Shown here in pieces: positions 2,690-26,533 of a stretch of 32,000 nucleotides of DNA. The first letter of the stretch is position 1. Each line of letters starts with the position of its first letter. The stretch is from the NCBI GenBank assembly GCA_964360965.1, contig CAYHYM010000006.1, forward strand, positions 12,265 to 44,264, given 5' to 3'. A program made the translations under genes and the position numbers. The stretch is from an uncultured Gammaproteobacteria bacterium (GTDB lineage Bacteria > Patescibacteriota > Microgenomatia > Daviesbacterales > UBA10151). Under the pieces are notes generated by a model that saw nothing but the letters and a program-made list of their open reading frames with translations, made no database searches and had not been told where the DNA came from.

Positions 2690-3301
2690 TTACTCCATTG
2701 TACGCTCAGGGCCTTGATCTCTATATGTATCAATAAACTGTCCTATTCTGGCAGCATCTAATGAATCAAACTTATCCAAGTATGTCCAAGCTGTTAGGGC
2801 AAAATTGGTATCAAGATTTTGTCTGGGAACAACTATTAATTTTCTTTGACCTTTTTTCTCGTAAACTTGAGCCAGTTGATCTTTCCTTCCTTCACACTCG
2901 TCATTGCGAGGAGCCGCAGGCGACGTGGCCCGCTTCGCCGACTCAGCGAGGCGAGCAATCTCTTCATTTTCCGAGGAAGATTGCTTCCCCCTCGCTTCGC
3001 TCGGGGTCGCAATGACACATTTGTAACTCATGATAATATACCCATGCTCCAATGAATGAACTAAGTTTCTATCATCTTTGGGCTCATCATAAACTCCTGC
3101 CCGAATCCAGTCCTCATAATGTTTACCGGAAGTTGGAGGATTTGAATTATACTCAACTTGTTCCCCTATTGGTACATGTCCTCTGCCTAAATCATCCAGC
3201 TTGGTGCCAGGCAAAGGTTTTGAGGATTCAATAAACAGCCAAGCAAGAAAAACTACAACCAAGGCAGCTATCACCCCTGATATAACCCATTTGTTACCCA
3301 T
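2690..3301 (-). CDS. DUF3105-like membrane-anchored protein carrying a 39-codon repeat-element insertion
   Basis: N-terminal TM segment, then GHVP...YNSNPPTSGKHY...EHGYIIMSY typical of DUF3105. The ATG at 3301 overlaps the upstream stop (TAATG). Residues VIATPSEARG...APRND are encoded by the GC-rich element at 2900-3016. Confidence 0.6.
   Translation of the reverse strand: MGNKWVISGVIAALVVVFLAWLFIESSKPLPGTKLDDLGRGHVPIGEQVEYNSNPPTSGKHYEDWIRAGVYDEPKDDRNLVHSLEHGYIIMSYKCVIATPSEARGKQSSSENEEIARLAESAKRATSPAAPRNDECEGRKDQLAQVYEKKGQRKLIVVPRQNLDTNFALTAWTYLDKFDSLDAARIGQFIDTYRDQGPERTME
2900..3016. repeat. 117-bp GC-rich palindromic element (GTCATTGCGAG...TCGCAATGAC), in-frame inside the DUF3105 gene
   Basis: The terminal inverted repeats GTCATTGCGA / TCGCAATGAC match exactly. 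It is visibly GC-richer than its flanks. 117 bp equals 39 codons with no stop in the host frame. Confidence 0.75.
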
Positions 3302-4038
3302 TAGAAGATATTTTGTTGATTCTGGAAAACTAAATCATGATACTCCCAATACTTATTCTGGTCCCCGGCACATCTGGCTGCTTCTGCAGACTTTTGGGCT
3401 CCCGGGTGAATCTGGGGTAATGGAAAATCCCGATAGTAAAACTTTACTTTACCGGTATCTATATATTCCTTATTTAGTTGCTGTTCAGTTTGAGTAAAAT
3501 GCCTGGCGCAGAAAGGACACTGGTAATCAGAAAACTCCACCAAAGTCACTTTGGCAGAAGCCTTCCCCAGTGAAGGTAAATCACCATTTCCCACAGTTTC
3601 TCTTTGAACACTACCTGCTGCTGAACCAGAAAGTTCTTCTTCTATCACAGATTTAAATTGCTCAAAAGGAACTGCGCCGGAAATAAGCCTGCCATTGATA
3701 AAGAAGGCAGGAGTGCCATTAACCCCGGCTTTGGATCCCTCATCTAAATCAGCCTGAACTAAAGAGGCTTTATTACCTGAATCCAAACAAGAGTCAAATT
3801 TACCTTGATCTAATTTTAGTTGTCCTGCCAGACTCTTCAAGCCCTTAACAATGTCTGCTTCAGTCTTAGCTTGTTGAGGTGCAGCAGGTTGAGCAGCAGT
3901 AGGAGCAGCTTGTTGTGGTTGAGTTGGCTTACCCAGTTTGATAATCCCACCATGCATTAAAACAGCCACAGCCACCATCACAGATCCCAAAAGGATTGCA
4001 ACCTGGGTAGATTTTAAGGGATTTAGGGAATTTTGCAT
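3301..4038 (-). CDS. DsbA-family thiol:disulfide oxidoreductase with N-terminal TM anchor and Ala/Pro/Gln-rich linker
   Basis: ATG at 4038. CPFC redox motif (SDYQCPFCARH). GTPAFFINGRLISGAVPFEQF resembles the DsbA/thioredoxin_4 C-terminal region. Confidence 0.75.
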   Translation of the reverse strand: MQNSLNPLKSTQVAILLGSVMVAVAVLMHGGIIKLGKPTQPQQAAPTAAQPAAPQQAKTEADIVKGLKSLAGQLKLDQGKFDSCLDSGNKASLVQADLDEGSKAGVNGTPAFFINGRLISGAVPFEQFKSVIEEELSGSAAGSVQRETVGNGDLPSLGKASAKVTLVEFSDYQCPFCARHFTQTEQQLNKEYIDTGKVKFYYRDFPLPQIHPGAQKSAEAARCAGDQNKYWEYHDLVFQNQQNIF

Positions 4039-5351: not shown

Positions 5352-6740
5352 TTAATCAAAAAGCCCTAATTGTGGAGCTTCAACTTGCTCCTCTTTAGCC
5401 GGATCCACTCCATCCTGCCATATCTTCACCACTCCATAAACTCCATCATAGCCTGGGTCAATCACCAAATCTCCTAATCTTGCCTTTTCCACTCCTTCTG
5501 CTATTTTTGAGTCGGATATTTTTGTTATTTCAGAAGTTTCAATCTTAGTTAATATTTTTAGCTCATTTCCCAATATCTTTGTTAACTTTTTATACTCATT
5601 TAATACTTTTTGGCTTGTTACAGAGGACTTTAATGCTTCTGAAATAATTTGTAAAAAAGGCACCAACATTCTATATCCGGGCCTATTTGCCATTGTTTGG
5701 CTTTTTATTACCCCATTCTCCCTGATCACCCCCAACTCACTAACATCCCTAACTGCAATCTCCTCCACTCTTTCCATCACCCCCACAGTCAAACCCCGAC
5801 CGCATTTGGGGCAGGTAGCCCCTTTGGTTTTGGTATCCTCAGGAGAATATTTAATATTGCAATTTCTATGCCCGGTATAATGATACTTCCCTTCTTCAGG
5901 ATAAAACTCAATAGTTCCTGCCACCTTGTCATCCCCGCGTAGGCGGGGATCCAATTTCGAACTAGAGTTGTTTAATTGGATTCCTGCATTCGCAGGAATG
6001 ACGGTAGGGCTTTTAATTGCTCTATATAAACCATAATAGCTGAACTCTCCTTCTATGACTGTTGCCTCCCTACCCAAATTTGGTAAAGAATGAGCATCAG
6101 AAAAAGAAACAATAGATCTATTATCCAACTCCTTTATCCGCCAATTCATGGCCGGGTCGCTCGAGAGTCCTGTCTCAATTCCATAGATGTAATCTGTCAA
6201 ATCTTCAAAACAGTCTTCCAAAGAATCATACCCTGATTCTGAACCAAATATTCCAAACCAGGGAGTCCAGGCATGCGCCGGGATAAAAAGGGTCTTTTCA
6301 GATGCTTGCAAAGCTAAACTTAATAAATCTTTGGAAGAAATCCCCACAATCGGTCTTCCGTCAGAACCTAAAGTTGCCCTTCTTGATAAGAGGGCTTTTT
6401 GAAAAGCTTCAGCTGAAGCAAAATCAGGCATAAAAACCAGATTGTGAACTCTTCTTACTCTACCTTTATGAGAATAAATAGAGGCAATCTCCACAGTTAA
6501 AACAAACTTGACCTCACTTCCAGCCAAAGGCTGGTCGTCCTTTGGACGAAAAAACCCTGATCCATCTTCTTTAAGCTGGCTTTTAAGTTCTGCAAACCAG
6601 AGAGGGTGTAAAAAATCCCCTGTCCCCAAAAGATCAATTCCCTTCAGCTTTGCCCACTCTGCTAGGTTCGGAATATTCAATTGTGGCGAACATGCCCTGG
6701 AAAACCTGGAATGAATATGCAAATCAGCTACATATGCCAT
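5352..6740 (-). CDS. PHP-domain nuclease, Endonuclease Q-like (TIGR00375-type), with a 25-codon repeat-element insertion
   Basis: Preferred ATG at 6740 (MAYVADLHIHSRFSRACS), 1 nt after the ligase stop. PHP metal motifs DLHIHS and IPAHAWTPW are present. A C-terminal Zn-finger-like stretch reads KYHYTGHRNC...CPKCGRGLTVGVMERV. VIPANAGIQ...RLRGDD is encoded by the element at 5928-6002. Confidence 0.6.
   Translation of the reverse strand: MAYVADLHIHSRFSRACSPQLNIPNLAEWAKLKGIDLLGTGDFLHPLWFAELKSQLKEDGSGFFRPKDDQPLAGSEVKFVLTVEIASIYSHKGRVRRVHNLVFMPDFASAEAFQKALLSRRATLGSDGRPIVGISSKDLLSLALQASEKTLFIPAHAWTPWFGIFGSESGYDSLEDCFEDLTDYIYGIETGLSSDPAMNWRIKELDNRSIVSFSDAHSLPNLGREATVIEGEFSYYGLYRAIKSPTVIPANAGIQLNNSSSKLDPRLRGDDKVAGTIEFYPEEGKYHYTGHRNCNIKYSPEDTKTKGATCPKCGRGLTVGVMERVEEIAVRDVSELGVIRENGVIKSQTMANRPGYRMLVPFLQIISEALKSSVTSQKVLNEYKKLTKILGNELKILTKIETSEITKISDSKIAEGVEKARLGDLVIDPGYDGVYGVVKIWQDGVDPAKEEQVEAPQLGLFD
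5928..6002. repeat. 75-bp palindromic element, family A copy 1, in-frame in the EndoQ-like gene
   Basis: GTCATCCCCGCGTAGGCGGGGATCC...GGATTCCTGCATTCGCAGGAATGAC. It has two 8-bp-stem hairpins flanking a central spacer. 66 of 75 positions are identical to the copy at 15260-15334. Confidence 0.85.
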
Positions 6741-6741
6741 A

Positions 6742-8511
6742 TTATTTTTGGTATTGTTGATTATACATCTCAATTAACTCTTTAACTGTAGTGGCATCTT
6801 CAGCTTTTTTATCAGCCTCACGGAATTTAACTAAACGAGGAAACCTTAGGGCATATCCAGCCTGTCCTGAGCCTGCCGAAGGAGTTCTATCCATCCCGGC
6901 TGTATGATTTGGGGATCTGGTAATTTCATCTGCCAAAACTTCTATTACAATTTCCGGAGCTATCCAGACAGAAGGAACCAAGATAGCATTAACTCTGGCT
7001 GGTTTTTTATCTACCTTGATTTTGTCTGCTTTTTTGTGTACCTCCCTCCATTCCTCATCTGTTAAACCTGTGCCAATTTTAGACACTGTCACAAATTCAT
7101 CTTTTTTATCATCATAAACTCCTACCAATAGTGCCCCGGCACCAAAAGCAGACCTCTTTCCTTTTCCAAAAATATATCCTAAAATTACACAATCAATGGT
7201 ATCTTTTAACTCCCCGCTTGAATGTCTTTTCAGTTTTACCCAGTTAAAATTCCTGGCCCCTGCCTCATATTTGGAAGTGGGCCTTTTAACAATTAACCCC
7301 TCCAAACCTTTAGTGAGCGCATCATCAAAAAGTTCCTGTATTCTGTCTGATGAATCCGTAATCTCACCTACTTCTGGAATTAATACTTCATTACCCTTGA
7401 TTCTTGATTCTAAAAGCTTGATTCTCTCTCTTAATGGAGTATCCATTAAAGATTTACCATCCAAATACATCACATCAAATACAAAAGCTTTTAATGGAAG
7501 CTTTGCCGCCATTTCCTCAATTCCATATTTGCGACGCCTTTTAGTGGTCTCCTGAAAAGGTAAAAATTCTTCAGATACCGGATTAAAAGCCAGGGCTTCT
7601 GAATCTAAAATTGCAGTTTTTGCTTTTACTTGTGACAAAACTCCTTGGATAATATCCGGAAACATGGGGGTAGTTTCCTCTAAATTTCTGGAGAATAACC
7701 TAATTTTATCCCCGTCTTTGTGAATCTGTACTCTAAACCCGTCAAATTTTTGTTGCACATGAGCCTCCCAGCCAAATTTTTCCAGAATTGTTTTTGGATC
7801 CGGTAATCTTTCTGCCAATTGTGATCTGATGGGTCGACCTACAGTTACATCCAATCCCCGAACTCCCCGAATCCCCCGACTCCACAAAATTTCTCCAATC
7901 AAACCTAAATCAGAAACGCGGTTATAAGCAGCCTCAAGAATGGGTCGTTTGGCCCTGTCCCGAGCGAATACGAGGGCAAAAGCATCCAAAATTGTCGGGT
8001 CACCAATTCCCAATCTTGACACTCCCAAAGGAATCCTGACTAAATGCTTGGCACCTATTCCGTCTACTTTTTGTAAAAGTCCAGCCAAGCTGGATATTTT
8101 CTTTTCCACTGTTCCCTCCCCTGTGGTCTTTGCTATATTCCTAAGTGTTTCGAATACTTCATTTACTGTCATCCCGAATTTATTTCGGGATCTCTTTTGA
8201 GATTCTGAAACAAGTTCAGAATGACGTTCGGCTACCAATCCTAAATCCCCTATCCTTCCATATTCTTTGAGTACCTGCTCACGTTCTATTCCATAAGTTC
8301 TGGCCATGGCAGCTGCCACACTTTTCTCTGCCATGCCAATCTCTAATGGTTCATAAAATGGGGCCACCCTACCTTGTAGCAAATAACAAACCTTGGCTAT
8401 CTCATCAGACTTTACTTTAGAAAAAAGCTCAGCCAAAATATCAATCAGGACCAGTCTTGATGAGGTTCCTTCAAGTTTTTCAAAATACTCAGTCAGTTTT
8501 GCAAATAACAT
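6742..8511 (-). CDS. lig: ATP-dependent DNA ligase, archaeal/eukaryotic Lig1-like three-domain type
   Basis: Preferred ATG at 8511 (MLFAKLTEYFEKLEGTSSR), with AAGGAA 7 nt upstream. Adenylation motif I is QQKFDGFRVQIH (KxDG). Also present are EGLIVK, a WVKLK-type motif and a C-terminal LRFPRLVKFREADK. The track ORF starts earlier at a GTG. Confidence 0.9.
   Translation of the reverse strand: MLFAKLTEYFEKLEGTSSRLVLIDILAELFSKVKSDEIAKVCYLLQGRVAPFYEPLEIGMAEKSVAAAMARTYGIEREQVLKEYGRIGDLGLVAERHSELVSESQKRSRNKFGMTVNEVFETLRNIAKTTGEGTVEKKISSLAGLLQKVDGIGAKHLVRIPLGVSRLGIGDPTILDAFALVFARDRAKRPILEAAYNRVSDLGLIGEILWSRGIRGVRGLDVTVGRPIRSQLAERLPDPKTILEKFGWEAHVQQKFDGFRVQIHKDGDKIRLFSRNLEETTPMFPDIIQGVLSQVKAKTAILDSEALAFNPVSEEFLPFQETTKRRRKYGIEEMAAKLPLKAFVFDVMYLDGKSLMDTPLRERIKLLESRIKGNEVLIPEVGEITDSSDRIQELFDDALTKGLEGLIVKRPTSKYEAGARNFNWVKLKRHSSGELKDTIDCVILGYIFGKGKRSAFGAGALLVGVYDDKKDEFVTVSKIGTGLTDEEWREVHKKADKIKVDKKPARVNAILVPSVWIAPEIVIEVLADEITRSPNHTAGMDRTPSAGSGQAGYALRFPRLVKFREADKKAEDATTVKELIEMYNQQYQK
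8168..8225. repeat. ~58-bp palindromic element (GTCATCCCGAA...TTCAGAATGAC) inside the DNA ligase gene
   Basis: It has two hairpin arms (TCCCGAAATAAATTCGGGA-type and TTCTGAAACAAGTTCAGAA) and shares the GTCAT/ATGAC termini. It is read in a different phase from the other copies (ERHSELVSESQKRSRNKFGMT). Exact insertion boundaries are uncertain. Confidence 0.65.
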
Positions 8512-8517
8512 AAAGTT

Positions 8518-8539
8518 TCCTTGCCTTCGCAGGGACGAC
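8518..8539. repeat. Single-arm copy of family A in the ligase 5' UTR
   Basis: TCCTTGCCTTCGCAGGGACGAC matches the right arm of the copy at 15313-15334 at 20 of 22 positions, and the last 14 nt are identical. It lies 7-28 nt upstream of the ligase ATG. Confidence 0.65.
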
Positions 8540-8589
8540 ACTATGTGTCGATTGTAATAGATTAAGCAAATATTGTAAAATATGTTGCT

Positions 8590-13961: not shown

Positions 13962-14603
13962 CTAAATATTTTGCCAAAAAAGATGGGGGGAGTACACAAT
14001 CCAGTCGTGTCCTTGATCCTTTAGTACTATCAATTTAGACCTTGGAATGGCTTTTTGTAGTGCTCTACCTTGCCATAAAGAGTTTAAAACATCCTTTTCA
14101 CCCCACATAATAATGGTGTAGTTTTTAATTTTAGATCCTTGTTCTTTTAAATCTACTTTAAAGGCATAACGCCCTAGTTTTATATGCATGGGAAGTTTTC
14201 TTATAAGATATCCTGAATTGGTGAAAAACTTGACTAACTTCGTATGCCCCCTGGTGAATAAATTTCGCAGCAAATTATTGGAAAGTTCAAAAATAGTCTC
14301 TTGACCATAAACTCCAGCTGAATCTACCAGATATAACTTATCAACCATTTCAGGATAGTGCATAGCAAACTCCATGGCCATAGCTCCACCTAAAGAATGT
14401 CCTATTAAACTCACCTTATTAAGATTTCTGGCTTTAAGGAAACTGACAAACTGATCTATAAAATCATCGATATTGCCAGTAGGGATAATCTCATGGTGAT
14501 TGGCGACAATCACTTTATAACCCTTGGGGGCACTATCAACTAACCTTTTATATGATCTCTCACTCCTAGTCCATCCAGGAAGAACAACTAAAATTTCTGA
14601 CAT
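13962..14603 (-). CDS. Alpha/beta-fold hydrolase
   Basis: Preferred ATG at 14603 (MSEILVVLPGW); the track start is a TTG. Nucleophile elbow GHSLGG, and a late GEKD...GHDW giving candidate Asp and His. Confidence 0.7.
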   Translation of the reverse strand: MSEILVVLPGWTRSERSYKRLVDSAPKGYKVIVANHHEIIPTGNIDDFIDQFVSFLKARNLNKVSLIGHSLGGAMAMEFAMHYPEMVDKLYLVDSAGVYGQETIFELSNNLLRNLFTRGHTKLVKFFTNSGYLIRKLPMHIKLGRYAFKVDLKEQGSKIKNYTIIMWGEKDVLNSLWQGRALQKAIPRSKLIVLKDQGHDWIVYSPHLFWQNI

Positions 14604-15556
14604 TTTGGACAAAAGTATGTTCCCCTTCCTCTCAATTGTACCTTTTTAATTTCTGTTCCACAGATCTTGCACGGATGTCTATCTCTACCATAAACAAAAG
14701 CATAGTCTAAAAAATAGCCTTTGTGACCCTCAGTATCCACAAAATGGGCCCTGGTGGAACCACCATGCTTAATACCATCCCTTAGCGCCCTGATCAACCC
14801 GTCATACAGTGCTTGAAACTGTTTATCAATCAGATTAACCACTTTAGTGCGGGGATCAATTTTGGCATTAAAACAAGCCTCGTTGGCATAAATATTTCCC
14901 ACTCCGGAAACCACTGTTTGATCCATAATCGCCACTTTCACAGGCATATTTTTATGTTTTAAAAGATTTTCTTTTAATACTTGCCAGCTAAATCCTTTTT
15001 CCAGGGGCTCTGGCCCTAAGTTTTTTAGATCCTTCGCTTCGCTCAGGATGACAGTGGGCATCACTTTAATCCAGCCGAAGCGCCGCTGGTCATTAAAATA
15101 AAGATGGGATCCATTACTGAAGCTAAAAATAACCCTGGTATGGGAATTGGGCATTTTACCCACCATATCAGGAGTTGGATGGCCACCAACAAAACGTTTG
15201 CCGTCCTCATATATGAGCTGGCCTGTCATTTTCAGATGAAAAAGTAAGGTTACCCCAACGTCATTCCCGCGGAGGCGGGAATCCAATTCCGAACTAGAGT
15301 TTTCTAATTGGATCCCTGCATTCGCAGGGACGACGTCCACTCCTATATACTTACCTTTTCTCCAGATATTGAGCACTTTCTTACCCTGTAAGCCCTGAGT
15401 GAAGCCCGCCCTGAGCGAGGCCGAAGGGTCGAAGGGTTTACCATTTTGATTTAAGAAAGATTTAGCAGAAAGTATTTGAATTTTCTTAATGATTAAACCA
15501 ACTATTTTCTTTTCTAAACCTAGTTTGATAGTTTCTACTTCAGGAAGTTCTGGCAT
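14588..15556 (-). CDS. mutM: Formamidopyrimidine-DNA glycosylase (Fpg/MutM) carrying three repeat-element insertions
   Basis: Preferred ATG at 15556 giving MPELPEVETI (catalytic Pro2). H2TH region VSGVGNIYANEACF. C-terminal zinc finger CKICGTEIKKVQLRGRGTYFCPKCQ. Extra segments relative to E. coli Fpg coincide with the elements at 15026-15052, 15260-15334 and 15384-15436. Confidence 0.85.
   Translation of the reverse strand: MPELPEVETIKLGLEKKIVGLIIKKIQILSAKSFLNQNGKPFDPSASLRAGFTQGLQGKKVLNIWRKGKYIGVDVVPANAGIQLENSSSELDSRLRGNDVGVTLLFHLKMTGQLIYEDGKRFVGGHPTPDMVGKMPNSHTRVIFSFSNGSHLYFNDQRRFGWIKVMPTVILSEAKDLKNLGPEPLEKGFSWQVLKENLLKHKNMPVKVAIMDQTVVSGVGNIYANEACFNAKIDPRTKVVNLIDKQFQALYDGLIRALRDGIKHGGSTRAHFVDTEGHKGYFLDYAFVYGRDRHPCKICGTEIKKVQLRGRGTYFCPKCQKF
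15026..15052. repeat. 27-bp single-hairpin element (GTCATCCTGAGCGAAGCGAAGGATCT on the gene strand) in Fpg
   Basis: Encodes VILSEAKDL in the inter-domain linker of Fpg. It has the same terminus and phase as the other GTCAT elements. Confidence 0.6.
15260..15334. repeat. 75-bp palindromic element, family A copy 2, in-frame in Fpg
   Basis: 88% identical to 5928-6002, with the same orientation and codon phase. Encodes VVPANAGIQLENSSSELDSRLRGND between two beta strands of the Fpg N-terminal domain. Confidence 0.85.
15384..15436. repeat. GC-rich CCCTGAG.../...CGAAGGG repeat (family D) inside Fpg
   Basis: CCCTGTAAGCCCTGAGTGAAGCCCGCCCTGAGCGAGGCCGAAGGGTCGAAGGG. It shares CCCTGAGCGA and GTCGAAGGG modules with the intergenic copy at 16722-16789. 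Encodes ...FDPSASLRAGFTQGLQG. Confidence 0.55.
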
Positions 15557-16712
15557 GTTTTTGGACAAGATCTAAAATCTCTTCCTTAAACCTTTCTTTG
15601 GAAAATTTTTGAGATTGCCTTAGGCAGTCTTCAGGTTTAAATTTGGCAGGATCAAACTTTTTTAAAGCTGCCATAAGATTGTCTGTTGTTACCGTGCCAG
15701 GACCTCCGTAAAGTAAACCAGTCTTACCATCCACCACACTTTCTAAAAACCCACCAGCCTTTGGGGCTATTACTGGAGTTCCTGTGGCCATACTCTCAAC
15801 AGGCACTATACCAAAATCCTCATCTTCGGATGCCACAATCAATGCTTTGGCATTTTGCAAAAGTCTTACTCTCTCCTGATCAGACACCCATCCTAAAAAT
15901 TCAATATTTTTGAACCCCGCGGAGCCTTGGCGAAGTGGGGCAATTTCCGGTCCATCCCCGGCAACCTTAAGTGGTAAACCCAACTTCCCACAAGCTTCCA
16001 CCACTACATCCACTCCCTTTCCCCTTACTAGTCTACTTAAAACTAAGAAATATTTTTTGTCATCCTGAGGCTTTGCCGAAGGATCTCCAGGTTTAATCTT
16101 GAGATTCTTCACGGAGTTTAGAATGACAGATATATCCACAGGTGGATATATCATCACCGAATCCCTTCTGTAAAATTTTTTAATTCTTTGGGCCACATTT
16201 TTTGAGTTAGCCACCAAAATATCAGGCCTCTGAGAGGTTTCAAAATCATAAATTCGCAAAATATGGTTGGCCAGTTCCCCAAACACCCTGGTCCACCAGT
16301 GTTTTTTATAGTTAAAAGAAGTTGCATACCCATATAAATAACGCGGTGGAGTATGGATATAGCTGATATGCAGGCTTTCTGGTTTGGTAATAACAGCCTT
16401 GGCAAAATAGGTGTTACAAGAGGAAATCACCAAGTCATATTCAGATAGATCAAAACTTTCAAACATCATTGGCGCAAATAATCTGAAGGGAGAAAGAAGT
16501 TGATTTGCAAATGGAAATTTTTGCAAACCTGATGTTCTTATATCCCAGTCTTTAAATCTCTTTCCATTTTCCCCCATTGCATCCAAATTTACATAAGCTG
16601 TATACAAAGGAGCATCCGGCCAAATCTCACGTAAGGCTTCCAAAACCCTCTCAGCGCCACCATACTCTTTTAAATAGTCATGTATCAAAGCTACTTTTAA
16701 ATTTTTATCCAT
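15540..16712 (-). CDS. Glycosyltransferase, GT4 / group 1 family
   Basis: ATG at 16712. N-terminal HDYLKEYGGAERV, and a C-terminal EDFGIVPVESMATGTPVIA (E-x7-E type motif). Contains the 23-codon element at 16059-16127. Confidence 0.8.
   Translation of the reverse strand: MDKNLKVALIHDYLKEYGGAERVLEALREIWPDAPLYTAYVNLDAMGENGKRFKDWDIRTSGLQKFPFANQLLSPFRLFAPMMFESFDLSEYDLVISSCNTYFAKAVITKPESLHISYIHTPPRYLYGYATSFNYKKHWWTRVFGELANHILRIYDFETSQRPDILVANSKNVAQRIKKFYRRDSVMIYPPVDISVILNSVKNLKIKPGDPSAKPQDDKKYFLVLSRLVRGKGVDVVVEACGKLGLPLKVAGDGPEIAPLRQGSAGFKNIEFLGWVSDQERVRLLQNAKALIVASEDEDFGIVPVESMATGTPVIAPKAGGFLESVVDGKTGLLYGGPGTVTTDNLMAALKKFDPAKFKPEDCLRQSQKFSKERFKEEILDLVQKHARTS
16059..16127. repeat. 69-bp palindromic element (family B, GTCATCCTGAGG...TTTAGAATGAC) in-frame in the glycosyltransferase gene
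   Basis: Inverted arms share the GTCAT/ATGAC termini. 69 bp equals 23 codons (VILNSVKNLKIKPGDPSAKPQDD). Confidence 0.75.
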
Positions 16713-16794: not shown

Positions 16795-17388
16795 TTATGA
16801 TATCATTTTTTTTCGCCATTTAGTAAGCCATAAATAGATCAGTCCATAAAGTATGGTCCCTATTACTCCTACTACCAAATCATTGACCACATCAAAAGTT
16901 CCTCTGACATTGTGAGTTTTTAAAAATACATCAGTGTAATATTCTTGGGCTTCAAGTAACAGATGAATAATATTTGCCAGCCCCACCCCACCCCAAAAAC
17001 TCCAGCCGAAAGCACCCAAAAGTACTGCTGCTAAAGCAGCTGTGGAATGAAAATGAGGGATTAAATCAAAGTAAAAGTAAGAATCATATAAATTAAAAGA
17101 GTTCCCGGCCATATCCAGCCAGAAAATGGATAAATAAAGATTATCCCACCAAAATGGATACTTGTGGTGAGCGAACTTGTGGTGAGAGTAACCGAACCAG
17201 TCGAACCATTTTTTCTTCCAAAAATACAATACAGGAAAAAGTAAACTTAAAGTGATCACAATAATAAAATTTCTAATGGGAATAGCTTTGCCGGCAAATC
17301 TGGGATCATCCGGAAAAAGCAAAACTTCTCCTAAAAAGTAAAGGATAGAAAGCCTGATGACGATGTTAATTATTAATCCCCAGTTCAT
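16795..17388 (-). CDS. Integral membrane protein, function unknown
   Basis: ATG at 17388, several hydrophobic helices, aromatic- and His-rich loops. The 49-bp family-C repeat lies inside it at 17161-17209. Confidence 0.5.
   Translation of the reverse strand: MNWGLIINIVIRLSILYFLGEVLLFPDDPRFAGKAIPIRNFIIVITLSLLFPVLYFWKKKWFDWFGYSHHKFAHHKYPFWWDNLYLSIFWLDMAGNSFNLYDSYFYFDLIPHFHSTAALAAVLLGAFGWSFWGGVGLANIIHLLLEAQEYYTDVFLKTHNVRGTFDVVNDLVVGVIGTILYGLIYLWLTKWRKKMIS
17161..17209 (+). repeat. 49-bp family-C repeat (CTTGTGGTGAGCGAAC...GTCGAACCAT) inside a membrane-protein gene
   Basis: 41 of 49 positions are identical to the reverse complement of 24399-24447. It contains internal direct repeats: CTTGTGGTGAG twice and CGAACC twice. 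Confidence 0.75.
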
Positions 17389-22558: not shown

Positions 22559-24400
22559 TCAACTTTTTTTCTTTCCCACCAGTTTTTCAAATTCATCAGT
22601 ATCCAGAGTTTCTTTTTCAAGCAGGGTTTTGGCCACTTTATCAAGCTTGACTCTTTCCATCTTTAAGATTTTTTGAGCTTGTTTATAACAGGCATCAATA
22701 ATCTTTTTTATTTCCACATCTATTTTTGATTGCATTGATTCGGAAACATCCCCTCCTTCATCCGACATCCTGGGCCAAAGACCAAACATGGACCGGGACT
22801 TGATATTAATCGGCCCCAAAGAAGACATGCCATACTCCACCACCATTTCTCTGGCAATGGAGGTGGCAATCTCAATGTCATTGGCAGCCCCGGTTGATAA
22901 ATCCCCAAATACCATCTCCTCTGCTGCCCGACCACCCAAAGCTGTTGATATTTGCTCCAACAGTCTTGATTTGGTTTCATTTGACCTGTCCTCTGTTGGA
23001 GGAAACATGGTGTGACCCCCGGATATACCCCTGGCCACTATGGTGATTCTATGAACCGGATCAATATTGGGCAAGTGGTGCCCTACAATGGCATGACCTG
23101 CCTCATGATAGGCTGCCAATTTTCTGTCTTTTTCAGTCTGCATCCTTTTTCGCTGTGGCCCCAGTTTAACTTTAGTGGCAGCCTCTTCCAAATCTTTAGC
23201 CTCGATTGCTTTTTTGCCCTCCCGAGCTGCTAAAATTGCTGCTTCATTTAACATGTTACTCAGATCCGCTCCGGAAAAACCAACTGTACGTCTGGCCAGT
23301 CTCTCGATGTCAACATCATCTGTAAAGGGTTTACCCTTCATATGAAGTTTGATGATATCTTTTCGCTCCTCAATATCCGGCATATTTAAAACCACCCGCC
23401 TGTCAAATCTGCCTGGACGGACCAGGGCCGGATCCAGCAGATCTGGCCTGTTGGTGGCTGCCAGCACTATCACGCTCTCATTAGGAGTAAATCCATCCAT
23501 CTCCACTAGTATCTGATTTAGGGTTTGCTCTCTCTCATCATGCCCTCCTGACATGCCAAAACCGCGCATTCTGCCAATTGATTCAATCTCATCTATAAAA
23601 ATAATGGCTGGAGCGCTCTTTTTGGCTTGAACAAACATATCACGAACGCGGGAAGCACCAACACCTACCAACATTTCCATAAACTCAGATCCGGCAATTG
23701 AATAAAATGGCACTCCGGCTTCTCCTGCTACGGCGCGCGAAATTAGCGTTTTTCCACATCCGGGTGGACCCACCAAAAGTACTCCTTTGGGCGTTCTGGC
23801 CCCAATCTCTTTATACTTTGCGGGACTTTTTAAAAAATCAACTATCTCTTCAAGTTCCTTTTTGGCCTCATCTGCTCCTGCCACATCGGAAAATTTAATC
23901 TGTGGAGCATCTTTGGTAAAAAGGCGAGCCCTGGATTGGCCAAAAGAAAAAATTCCCCCTCCTGCTTCTTTGGCGTTTCTGAAGATTAAAAAGAAAAATC
24001 CCACCATCAAAAGAATTGGTAAGATCGCCCCTAAAACATTAAGCCAGGCCTCTTGAAAAGAAATATCTTTAATCTCAACTGTGGTTAATTTGGGATCAAC
24101 TCCTGAGGAATCCAGGATTTTATAAATTGACTCACCCGCCTCTTTTCTGGACATTAGTTTTTCATCAGAATCTTTGATTTGAGCAGATACTTTATCTCCT
24201 TCCAAAGATAATTTCTCCACCTTTCCCTCTTTGATCATATTTATAATCTGTGAAATGGGTACCTCATTTGAAGGAATTGAGGAGCCTGACAATTGATAAA
24301 AAAAGATCAAGGAAGCAACAGCAATAAGTGCATAAACAGCCACTCCTTTAAGGATGGATATGATCCGACCATTAAATTTTTTTTTATGGTTATTGGCCAT
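22559..24400 (-). CDS. ftsH: ATP-dependent zinc metalloprotease FtsH
   Basis: ATG at 24400. Two N-terminal TM segments, Walker A GPPGCGKT, Walker B IIFIDEIE, second region of homology, and the HEAGHA zinc motif. Confidence 0.95.
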
Positions 24401-24447
24401 GGTTCGACTACTTCGACTATGCTCAGTACAAGTTCGCTCACCACAAG
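24399..24447 (-). repeat. 49-bp family-C repeat abutting and contributing to the ftsH start codon
   Basis: The minus strand reads CTTGTGGTGAGCGAACTTGTACTGAGCATAGTCGAAGTAGTCGAACCAT followed by G. The conserved terminal ...CCAT supplies the A and T of the ftsH ATG. Confidence 0.75.
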
Positions 24448-24467
24448 TAAAAGAATACTAACATAAA

Positions 24468-24791: not shown

Positions 24792-24890
24792 GATTTATAA
24801 GTTTTCCAAGTACCAAATTACAAGATTTCTTGGAATACTTGGTACTTCTTGATTAGAAATAATCAATCTTCATAACTTTTTTAACTTTAG

Positions 24891-25232
24891 TTAAAGTTTT
24901 TTGGGTTTTTTAATTTGATGTAGTGTTACCTGAGATGAAATTTCAGATTGTTTAGGTTTCCTACCAAGTGATTTTAACTTTTCCATAATCCACATTCTGA
25001 CCATAGTTGATGGACCTACACCTAATTTAGCGCTTAGTTTTGTAAGTTGGGTCAGGGTTTTCCCATCCATTCTTACCCCTAAAATATGTTGCAAAGGTCT
25101 TACAAATTCAAGCTTAACAGGCTTAAATTCATCTTCAAATTCGGTTGTATCATGAGTATCCCACCACTCCACTTCTTCTTCATAGCTTTTGAATCTTGGG
25201 ATTCTGCTTTTTTTTCTTTTATTTGTAGTCAT
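24891..25232 (-). CDS. brnA: BrnA-like (CopG/RHH-type) antitoxin
   Basis: ATG at 25232, 2 nt after the brnT stop. IPRFKSYEEEVEWWDTHDTTEF followed by an RHH-like C-terminal region is typical of BrnA-family antitoxins. Confidence 0.6.
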   Translation of the reverse strand: MTTNKRKKSRIPRFKSYEEEVEWWDTHDTTEFEDEFKPVKLEFVRPLQHILGVRMDGKTLTQLTKLSAKLGVGPSTMVRMWIMEKLKSLGRKPKQSEISSQVTLHQIKKPKKL

Positions 25233-25234
25233 AG

Positions 25235-25507
25235 TTATTTTATCTTTTTCAAATAGAGTTTCTTTTCATTTTTAGCAGCATCTCTAGCTGTTATTGGATC
25301 AAACCAACCATAATCAGCAGGCTCAATTATAATGACTAAATAACGTCCACTACCTGTCTGCCCAATCAGTCTATACCTACCTTGCTTTGTTTTAACATCA
25401 TAATGTTTACCAAAAACAACTTCTTCTACCTCATCTGGCAAAACTCCGTGTCTTGAGATATGTTCCTCACGCCACTGATTCCAATTCAAACCTTTAATCT
25501 TAATCAT
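25235..25507 (-). CDS. brnT: BrnT-like (DUF497) ribonuclease toxin
   Basis: ATG at 25507, 90 aa. W..W...HI.RHGV..DEVEEVVFG and R..LIGQT..GRYLVIII...ITARDA...EKKLY fit the DUF497/BrnT pattern. Confidence 0.65.
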   Translation of the reverse strand: MIKIKGLNWNQWREEHISRHGVLPDEVEEVVFGKHYDVKTKQGRYRLIGQTGSGRYLVIIIEPADYGWFDPITARDAAKNEKKLYLKKIK

Positions 25508-25534: not shown

Positions 25535-26533
25535 TTACCTAAAATAATCAAGTCTCATAGCCTTCTTAACCTCTAACAAAGTTTTTTGGGCTTCTGATCT
25601 GGCTTTTTCAGTTCCCTCTTTTAAGATCCGTTCGACAAGCTTAGGATCTCGCTCGAAACGAGCTCGATTTTCTCTGATAGGCTGCAGGAAATTATTTAAA
25701 ACTTTTATCAGGTACTTTTTTACCTCAATATCACCAACTTGGCCTTTTGTATAAGCCTCTTTAAATTTGCCTATCTGAGCTCTATCACTCTCAGCACCAA
25801 AGGCATCCAGATAAATAAATACAGGGTTTCCTTCCACGGTCCCCGGGTCTGTTGGGTGTATTCTTTTCGGATCTGTATACATGCTCATGACCTTCTTTTC
25901 TACCTCTTCTTCGGAATCTGTCAGGAAAATAGCATTATTCAAGGATTTTCCCATTTTTCCTTGTCCGTCAGTACCTGGTAAAGTTGGTACTTCCCCTATT
26001 AAAGGTTCTGGAATTGGAAAAACATCTCCGTATAGATTATTGAATTTGATCGCCATATCTCTGGCAAATTCTACATGAGCCTTTTGATCCTTACCCACAG
26101 GCACTAAATTTGCTCTTGGAGTCAAAATATCAGCAGCCATAAGTACCGGGTAATAGAATAATCCTACAGTGTCTTGCTCTCCATGATCCAGCTTTTCTTT
26201 TAGAGCAGGCTGTCTTTCTAAAAGTGGTCTGGGTGTTAATAAACTTAAGAAATAGGCTAATTCAACTATTTCAGGAATTTTAGACTGCAGACAAAAAGTT
26301 ACCTTATTAGGATCCAAACCAACTGATAAATATCCCAGCATTAAACCTCTGATGTTTTTCTCTAAATCAGCAGTTCTATCAAAGTGGGTTGTTAAAGCAT
26401 GTAAATCCACCACCTCTATAAAGGTTTCATATTCATCCTGCAGTTTCACTCTATTGGCAAGTGATCCAACATAGTTTCCCAAATGAAAGCTATCAGATGT
26501 AGGCCTATCCCCTGTTAAGATTCTTTTCTTCAT
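25535..26533 (-). CDS. trpS: Tryptophan--tRNA ligase
   Basis: The ATG at 26533 directly abuts the upstream TAA. Class I motifs are TGDRPTSDSFHLGNYVG (HIGH-type) and KMGKSLNN (KMSKS). Size (332 aa) and overall pattern fit TrpRS. Confidence 0.9.
   Translation of the reverse strand: MKKRILTGDRPTSDSFHLGNYVGSLANRVKLQDEYETFIEVVDLHALTTHFDRTADLEKNIRGLMLGYLSVGLDPNKVTFCLQSKIPEIVELAYFLSLLTPRPLLERQPALKEKLDHGEQDTVGLFYYPVLMAADILTPRANLVPVGKDQKAHVEFARDMAIKFNNLYGDVFPIPEPLIGEVPTLPGTDGQGKMGKSLNNAIFLTDSEEEVEKKVMSMYTDPKRIHPTDPGTVEGNPVFIYLDAFGAESDRAQIGKFKEAYTKGQVGDIEVKKYLIKVLNNFLQPIRENRARFERDPKLVERILKEGTEKARSEAQKTLLEVKKAMRLDYFR

Follow-up and report, generated by a model that had tools for sequence, protein, structure and literature searches.

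The window analysed here, a 32,000-nt stretch of contig CAYHYM010000006.1 (positions 12,265 to 44,264), contains two copies of a 75-bp palindromic element, one read in frame within a gene for an Endonuclease Q (EndoQ)-family protein and the other within the gene for the formamidopyrimidine-DNA glycosylase Fpg/MutM. Comparison of the copies with each other and with related loci indicated that the arms of the element are under nucleotide-level constraint within each locus, in sequence as well as in pairing. It is considered fairly probable that the copies are inverted doublets of NTS/dRS3-like hairpins, forming a small non-autonomous element of the REPIN (repetitive extragenic palindromic doublet forming hairpins) or MITE (miniature inverted-repeat transposable element) type that would be read by an Ssn-type enzyme acting on single-stranded DNA (ssDNA). 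The host genes and the two copies were located as follows:

5352-6740, minus strand: host gene 1, Endonuclease Q-family protein of 462 aa from the ATG at 6740 (open reading frame (ORF) 5352-6773).
14588-15556, minus strand: host gene 2, Fpg/MutM (formamidopyrimidine-DNA glycosylase) of 322 aa (ORF 14588-15568).
5928-6002, minus strand: element copy 1, in frame in the Endonuclease Q-family gene, encoding residues 247-271 (VIPANAGIQLNNSSSKLDPRLRGDD).
15260-15334, minus strand: element copy 2, in frame in fpg, encoding residues 75-99 (VVPANAGIQLENSSSELDSRLRGND).

The EndoQ assignment was made from a match to PDB 5zb8 (E 3e-44), with protein P0133 100% identical, and the Fpg/MutM assignment from Pfam and PDB matches, with protein P0013 100% identical. 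After the identical proteins, the next-best protein matches of both hosts were from Candidatus Daviesbacteria (Microgenomates, Candidate Phyla Radiation (CPR)). The host genes were also present on Hainich groundwater contigs.

A preliminary description of the window had reported that the two copies are each exactly 75 bp with 66 of 75 positions identical, share orientation and codon phase, encode the two peptides listed above and include two compensated stem pairs among their nine differences. A recount of the sequence agreed with all of this. Both genes lie on the minus strand and both copies begin at phase 0. The differences are at element positions 6, 13, 21, 30, 43, 45, 55, 70 and 72, of which 6/21 and 55/70 are the halves of the compensated pairs. 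In the left hairpin, pair 6/21 changes from C-G in copy 1 to T-A in copy 2 (ATCCCCGC/GCGGGGAT to ATTCCCGC/GCGGGAAT), while in the right hairpin pair 55/70 changes from T-A to C-G. The flanks of the two copies are unrelated (identities of 7/30 and 9/30). Of the six possible reading frames of the element, stop codons interrupt all but sense frame 0 and antisense frame 1, so the common codon phase of both copies is not an independent coincidence. A chance origin was rejected: the arm pattern occurred eight times in the window against 0.03 occurrences expected, and four differences placed randomly on the 32 stem positions would give two full pairs with p ~0.003.

Each copy is laid out as an imperfect palindrome, or inverted doublet, of a 29-nt arm, a 17-nt spacer and a 29-nt inverted arm, and the 29-nt terminal inverted repeats are 83% complementary. 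From its outer end, an arm consists of GTCAT (GTCGT in one arm), a 6-bp variable inner stem closed by a 4-nt loop, AT and CCAATT. The AT of GTCAT pairs with the later AT and lengthens the inner stem to an 8-bp arm stem, giving the arm formula GTC, 8-bp stem, 4-nt loop, ATCC. In addition, the CCAATT of one arm is complementary to the AATTGG of the other. The parts of the two copies and a further arm of the same family in the window were:

5928-5956: copy 1 arm, 3' in mRNA sense, GTCAT-CCCCGC-GTAG-GCGGGG-ATCCAATT, with the 8-bp hairpin ATCCCCGC/GCGGGGAT.
5957-5973: copy 1 spacer, 17 nt, variable among orthologues.
5974-6002: copy 1 inverted arm, minus-strand reading GTCAT-TCCTGC-GAAT-GCAGGA-ATCCAATT.
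15260-15288: copy 2 arm, GTCAT-TCCCGC-GGAG-GCGGGA-ATCCAATT.
15289-15305: copy 2 spacer, 17 nt.
15306-15334: copy 2 inverted arm, minus-strand reading GTCGT-CCCTGC-GAAT-GCAGGG-ATCCAATT.
8517-8539, minus strand: degenerate solo arm, GTCGTCCCTGCGAAGGCAAGGAA, with one stem mismatch, just upstream of the likely ATG of a DNA ligase.

Folding of the copies gave z-scores from -4.7 to -6.5 with RNA or DNA parameters. With DNA parameters all four strands formed three adjacent hairpins (z -4.9 to -6.5), whereas with RNA parameters the copies differed, one folding as a long hairpin and the other as three hairpins. The compensated changes keep the local hairpins and not the long hairpin. An Rfam search of the window returned two tRNAs and nothing else.

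Covariation was assessed on arms gathered from ~118 kb of Daviesbacteria loci with the anchors GT[CG][AG]T...ATCC, which lie outside the inner stem. The set held 21 distinct arms, and one middle loop base was dropped from four of them for register. Stems were paired in 96.4% of the cells, only six cells being unpaired. Cells in which both sides had changed numbered 29, against 7.2 ± 3.3 in shuffled sets, and the covariation score was 0.476 compared to 0.149 after shuffling; none of 500 shuffles was as high in either measure. Four of the eight pairs covaried, and pairing dropped to 18-53% in controls with a slid register. All six inner pairs were formed in every arm of the family except two or three degenerate ones, while chance matches to the pattern formed 0-4 of the six. 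At least nine distinct inner stems were present (TCCTGC, CCCCGC, CCCTGC, TCCCGC, CCCGCC, CCCGCA, CCCGTA, CCCGAC and TCCGAA). The only wobble pair of the arm set was a G-T in the GTCGT arm, on the sense strand. It had been proposed that stem mismatches as common as compensated changes in a larger set would speak against selection on pairing; the 29 doubly changed cells against six unpaired ones showed the opposite.

The exact 75-bp composite is rare in public collections and for this reason no large genome-wide covariation set could be built. A scan of viral, genome and metagenome collections with the spacer motif CCAATTNCGAACTAGAGTT found one further real copy and two chance matches, the real copy being an intergenic Daviesbacteria variant (loci L002 and L003, which are the same). 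A search with the joined peptides returned 12 short spurious ORFs only. These carried DPRLRGDD or DSRLRGND, and one a decayed DSRVRGSD; there were no mixed P/N or S/D forms, so that the covariation is also visible in the encoded peptides.

The EndoQ-site element was also found in three other lineages (L005, L006 and L008) and the Fpg-site element in L009 and, with its centre deleted, in L015. The host proteins of the four EndoQ-site copies are 72-77% identical. Across these four copies 57 of the 58 arm bases and 7 of the 17 spacer bases were invariant, and pairwise identity was 98-100% in the arms, 47-76% in the spacer and 55-81% in the flanks. The arm at 5974-6002 was invariant at all 29 bases in the four lineages, and the arm at 5928-5956 was the same in L005 and L008 and differed by one loop base in L006. 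At sites where the amino acid is invariant among the four copies, identical codons were used at 18 of 21 sites in the element compared to 51 of 249 in the whole gene (p 2e-9) and to 4 of 19 in the 21 codons directly downstream of the element (p 8e-5). The EndoQ-type arms (TCCTGC and CCCCGC stems) recurred in every lineage with that copy, as did the Fpg-type arms (GTCGT-CCCTGC and TCCCGC stems) in every lineage with theirs: the arm at 15306-15334 was identical in L009, with the GTCGT variant included, and the stem of the arm at 15260-15288 was also present in L009 and L015. Since the arm variants of each locus recur in orthologues of other lineages, the compensated differences are old and locus-specific and did not arise in this genome.

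Selection on the peptide alone, with pairing as a by-product of a palindromic coding sequence, would be consistent with the same open frame in both copies and with the silent changes of the spacer at serine codons (TCT/TCA and TCG/TCA), which accord with translation. This explanation is extremely improbable given the excess of identical codons in the element over the adjoining codons. Moreover, the covarying pair 55/70, in the 5' arm in mRNA sense, is silent on both sides (ATT/ATC for Ile and GGA/GGG for Gly), and the insert is of low confidence in both structure models. The saturated silent sites beside the frozen arms therefore exclude, for practical purposes, both peptide-only selection and a recent transfer of the whole element. 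The proposal in the preliminary description that selection acts on nucleic-acid pairing, beyond the encoded peptide, was thus supported by the covariation of the family together with the silent-site conservation between orthologues.

The carriers of the element were scattered in the EndoQ neighbour-joining tree. The tree, too star-like for dating the insertion, did reveal sister genes of which one has the insert and the other lacks it. For the carrier L005 and its sister L018, a non-carrier, identity is 93.5% in protein and ~93% in DNA, except at L005 10675-10820, where a sharply bounded tract of ~150 nt, comprising ~57 nt upstream, the element and ~18 nt downstream, could not be aligned. Most carriers, whatever their backbone, have a common left-flank haplotype with a two-residue deletion and Pro-Ser/Thr before the element. 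This haplotype is also present in L016, which holds another element family, and L008/P0136 departs from it. One genome holds the EndoQ copy without the Fpg copy and another the reverse. Presence and absence at the EndoQ site thus changed by allelic tract replacement and not by clean transposition.

The patchy distribution of carriers and the recombination tract around the element, together with the ability in principle of palindromes to correct themselves, would fit an explanation without selection in place, in which recent spread, gene conversion or hairpin-templated repair restores the pairing. We regard it as very unlikely. Recent transfer would bring the spacer and flanks too, whereas the spacer and the adjoining codons have diverged as far as the remainder of the gene and the arms stay nearly identical; recent transfer of the whole element was rejected on this ground. 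The persistence of locus-specific arm variants across lineages argues against homogenisation between loci. Finally, self-templated repair predicts many compensated changes between orthologues, and none was seen.

The alignments and structure models show both copies to be insertions into tolerant surface loops that are read through as 25 extra residues, translation of the element being inferred from the intact reading frames. The EndoQ site was without any insert in 101 of 121 aligned homologues and the Fpg site in 70 of 121. In the AlphaFold model of EndoQ, residues 246-277 have a pLDDT <50 and the insert (247-271) comes after a helix. In the Fpg model the insert (75-99) lies between strands E70-77 and E102-107, and residues 81-100 have a mean pLDDT of 54-55. 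The link of the element to DNA-repair genes is probably incidental, because relatives are also found in genes for carbamoyl-phosphate synthetase, and a glycosyltransferase gene contains hairpins of other families. A specific association with DNA repair was rejected.

The same two loops were also seen to hold other inserts. The Fpg loop was occupied in 51 of the 121 homologues and the EndoQ loop in 20 of 121, and the inserts belonged to many hairpin-repeat families in various reading frames, some of them cut to half elements. Nearly all loop-occupying hairpin families at both sites end in ...ATGAC. In the window, fpg contains two more repeat-like inserts, a solo hairpin insert at 15026-15052 (GTCATCCTGAGCGAAGCGAAGGATC, encoding VILSEAKDL) and a GC-rich stretch at 15383-15436 (PFDPSASLRAGFTQGLQG). 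The three Fpg inserts together would explain ~46 extra residues relative to the 116-position Pfam N-terminal domain.

The arms most resemble hairpins known from Neisseria. The Neisseria dRS3 repeat is ATTCCC-N8-GGGAAT and its longer 28-nt form, NTS, is CGTCATTCCCGCGMAVGCGGGAATCYRG (PMC11893778). SsnA, a small GIY-YIG nuclease, binds dRS3/NTS hairpins solely as ssDNA and cleaves a few bases upstream; binding depends most on the C that follows the palindrome and cleavage on the three upstream bases, while loop identity is inessential and alteration of the stem sequence with pairing kept leads to loss of activity (PMC11893778). Ssn-related motifs (SRM) flank ssn genes in various phyla (Chenal et al. 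2025, PMC11893778). The dRS3 repeat has been linked to locally raised diversity or recombination, and the main text of the same paper mentions neither intragenic copies nor Patescibacteria (PMC11893778).

The sequence at 15259-15286 matched NTS at 26 of 28 positions and contained a perfect dRS3 core at 15263-15282. The four window arms had 2, 4, 5 and 7 mismatches to the 28 positions of NTS, the additional ones being mostly compensated stem changes, and none came within the one mismatch that the Neisseria paper allows for an NTS match. The dRS3 core was present in one of the four arms, and the other three differed from it by compensated pairs. The upstream GTC and the C after the palindrome were present in all four. 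The SRM pattern HGTCWYN(0-2)YYVSBRHN(0-5)WNVSBRGN(0-2)RNCYNB had no match in the window (0.06 expected). Parsed manually, the window arms deviate from the pattern only in having A for B at the last position, apart from the GTCGT arm, which has a second deviation at W. The pattern was matched by related arms in L005, L015, L012 and L014. Arms were also found between genes, in both orientations, solo and as doublets with other spacers in non-CPR contigs of 53-61% GC, where near-canonical NTS doublets included one in frame within a mutL ORF (a 67-bp doublet at L012 2281-2347, from a bacterium of 61% GC).

Overall, the Daviesbacteria element and the Neisseria repeats have in common the order of GTC, an ATTCCC-N8-GGGAAT-type palindrome and ATC-C, the importance of sequence as well as shape, and an association with local diversity or recombination, which is reported for dRS3 and observed around the Daviesbacteria element. 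They differ in that the Daviesbacteria element occurs as fixed 75-bp inverted doublets in frame within CPR core genes and in that a search of the window and ~190 kb of related loci found no ssn gene near the window copies.

The constraint could alternatively act on the mRNA, with the hairpins serving, for example, in RNase cleavage, transcript stability or ribosome pausing within the coding region and being kept because the host protein needs them for its expression or folding. The sense strand has a strong RNA fold (-33 to -34 kcal/mol, z from -4.8 to -6.1), the arms are conserved within transcribed genes and the sole wobble pair, the G-T of GTCGT, belongs to the sense strand. An mRNA role is nevertheless unlikely, since the same arms also lie between genes, stand alone, run antisense to a gene at L005 1415-1439 and extend to unrelated phyla, and since each doublet has one arm in each orientation. 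The dissimilar RNA-parameter folds of the two copies and the lack of a matching Rfam family also speak against it. In addition, SsnA, the characterised partner of the hairpin closest to these arms, shows no binding to RNA (PMC11893778). A role at the DNA level, in nuclease recognition or mobility, is favoured over RNase, processing or pausing roles because the arms are also intergenic, lie in both orientations, occur in unrelated high-GC bacteria and resemble a hairpin that is read as ssDNA.

With a DNA-level role, the main alternative enzyme to an Ssn nuclease is a Y1 (RAYT/IS200-IS605-like) transposase, which would move a REPIN-type doublet and use the hairpins as its ssDNA recognition sites. 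REPINs are pairs of inverted repeats with a less conserved spacer, are predicted to form hairpins as ssDNA or RNA, commonly show compensatory changes, and are almost wholly extragenic and tied to a Y1 transposase (RAYT) (PMC3116915). The 75-bp element is alike in having two inverted arms, a spacer less conserved than the arms and compensatory changes, and the architecture of an inverted doublet with conserved arms and variable spacer is what this alternative predicts. The lack of target duplication is likewise as in the Y1 transposase family. Unlike REPINs, both 75-bp copies lie inside ORFs; the element has GTCAT as its 5' motif, and neither the window nor the related loci yielded a RAYT. The 5' motif of REP sequences is typically GTAG. 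Movement by a Y1 transposase was judged improbable, as no Y1 transposase is encoded in the window or related loci, the arms match the Ssn-associated NTS far more closely and REPINs are nearly always extragenic (PMC3116915).

Two other classes of repeat were compared. Of the two marks of a classical MITE, terminal inverted repeats are present, and no consistent target-site duplication was seen around the ~10 copies inspected. The Rickettsia palindromic elements (RPE) are palindromic repeats of ~150 bp, as first reported, that lie in frame in Rickettsia genes (Ogata et al. 2000, 2002, summarised in PMC10969869). As in RPEs, the insert here is palindromic, in frame in unrelated housekeeping genes and read through at positions compatible with the fold. 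It differs in length (75 bp against ~150 bp) and in host (Patescibacteria against Alphaproteobacteria), the comparison being one of published descriptions. Silent-site-frozen arms and the reuse of one loop by many families are not described for RPEs in the available part of that source. The literature searched made no mention of the peptide motifs of the element and held nothing relevant on MITEs in Patescibacteria. The element joins an NTS/SRM-like hairpin with a doublet architecture similar to that of REPINs and with coding insertion in the manner of RPEs.

For an Ssn-read doublet of NTS/dRS3-like hairpins, the following mechanism can be proposed. An arm would fold as a hairpin in ssDNA and be recognised by a hairpin-specific DNA enzyme through both its sequence and its shape, which would account for the constraint. 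By analogy with Neisseria, the likeliest enzyme would be an Ssn-type GIY-YIG single-strand nuclease that cuts a few bases upstream of GTC. In a doublet, a cut would lie just beyond either end, the two on opposite strands, and the pair may delimit the spreading unit. Spread from lineage to lineage may also proceed by homologous replacement of short tracts bearing the element.

Several observations weigh against this interpretation. The window and the ~190 kb of related loci yielded neither an Ssn/GIY-YIG gene nor one for a transposase; Pfam covered 34 of the ~36 main ORFs of the window, and a scan for Ssn-like motifs covered the window and the related loci. GIY-YIG proteins in Patescibacteria are reported in the literature in general terms only. 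None of the copies inspected showed a clean transposition or a target duplication or could be paired with an empty site, and the sole resolved gain or loss is a recombination tract. The window arms miss the SRM pattern in its exact form and have 2-7 mismatches to the 28 positions of NTS. The arms used for covariation are few in number, come from few genomes and are in part related by descent. Finally, the interpretation gives no reason for a host to keep such sites intact in core genes.

A broader and tentative possibility, which we hold to be unlikely, is that the doublets are no passive debris and that the host maintains them as ssDNA recognition sites punctuating its core genes. Daviesbacteria lineages would exchange them as ~150-bp cassettes, possibly steering the recombination of incoming DNA, with hairpin families competing for few permissive loops.

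Other repeats of similar type were observed in the window and related loci. A second GTCAT-hairpin family is represented by a 58-bp inverted doublet at 8168-8225, with stems ATCCCGAA/TTCGGGAT and ATTCTGAA/TTCAGAAT, which lies within the gene for an ATP-dependent DNA ligase (6742-8541, minus strand), where ..HSELVSESQKRSRNKFGMT.. is read from it. A 69-bp element, of the same general type and decayed, was found at ~16059-16127, in frame in a GT4 glycosyltransferase gene (15540-16712, minus strand) with the peptide VILNSVKNLKIKPGDPSAKPQDD. A 51-nt repeat of a different family occurs in inverted orientation at 17159-17209 and 24399-24449 (84% complementary), one copy in frame in a membrane-protein ORF (16795-17388, minus strand, ..WFDWFGYSHHKFAHHKY..) and the other in the intergenic region upstream of ftsH. 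In L005, an in-frame doublet with an enlarged loop lies in the gene for the large chain of carbamoyl-phosphate synthetase (3484-3606), and the antisense solo arm mentioned above, another in-frame member of the family, lies in that for the small chain.

Two further features of the window concern other genes. In the thioredoxin/DsbA-like protein encoded at 3301-4038, the C-terminal part of the Pfam DSBA domain (64-132) precedes the N-terminal part of Thioredoxin_4 (156-243), a domain order which suggests a permuted or duplicated fold. The double match to DSBA and Thioredoxin_4 recurs in the orthologues of L008, L016 and L017. In addition, a pair of BrnT-like toxin and CopG-type antitoxin genes (24891-25507) adjoins a 52-nt direct repeat (24857-24908 and 25542-25593; 75% identical).

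In-frame coding palindromes, best known from Rickettsia, are with these copies also found in the Candidate Phyla Radiation. Their link to a hairpin type with a known sequence-specific ssDNA nuclease would provide a candidate enzyme for a phenomenon that has been known for ~25 years. The arms frozen at silent sites beside saturated codons indicate that intragenic elements can be under strong nucleotide-level constraint, unlike decaying mobile debris. Finally, the reuse of the same loops by many families and the bounded replacement tract point to recombination-linked remodelling of proteins in bacteria with tiny genomes.

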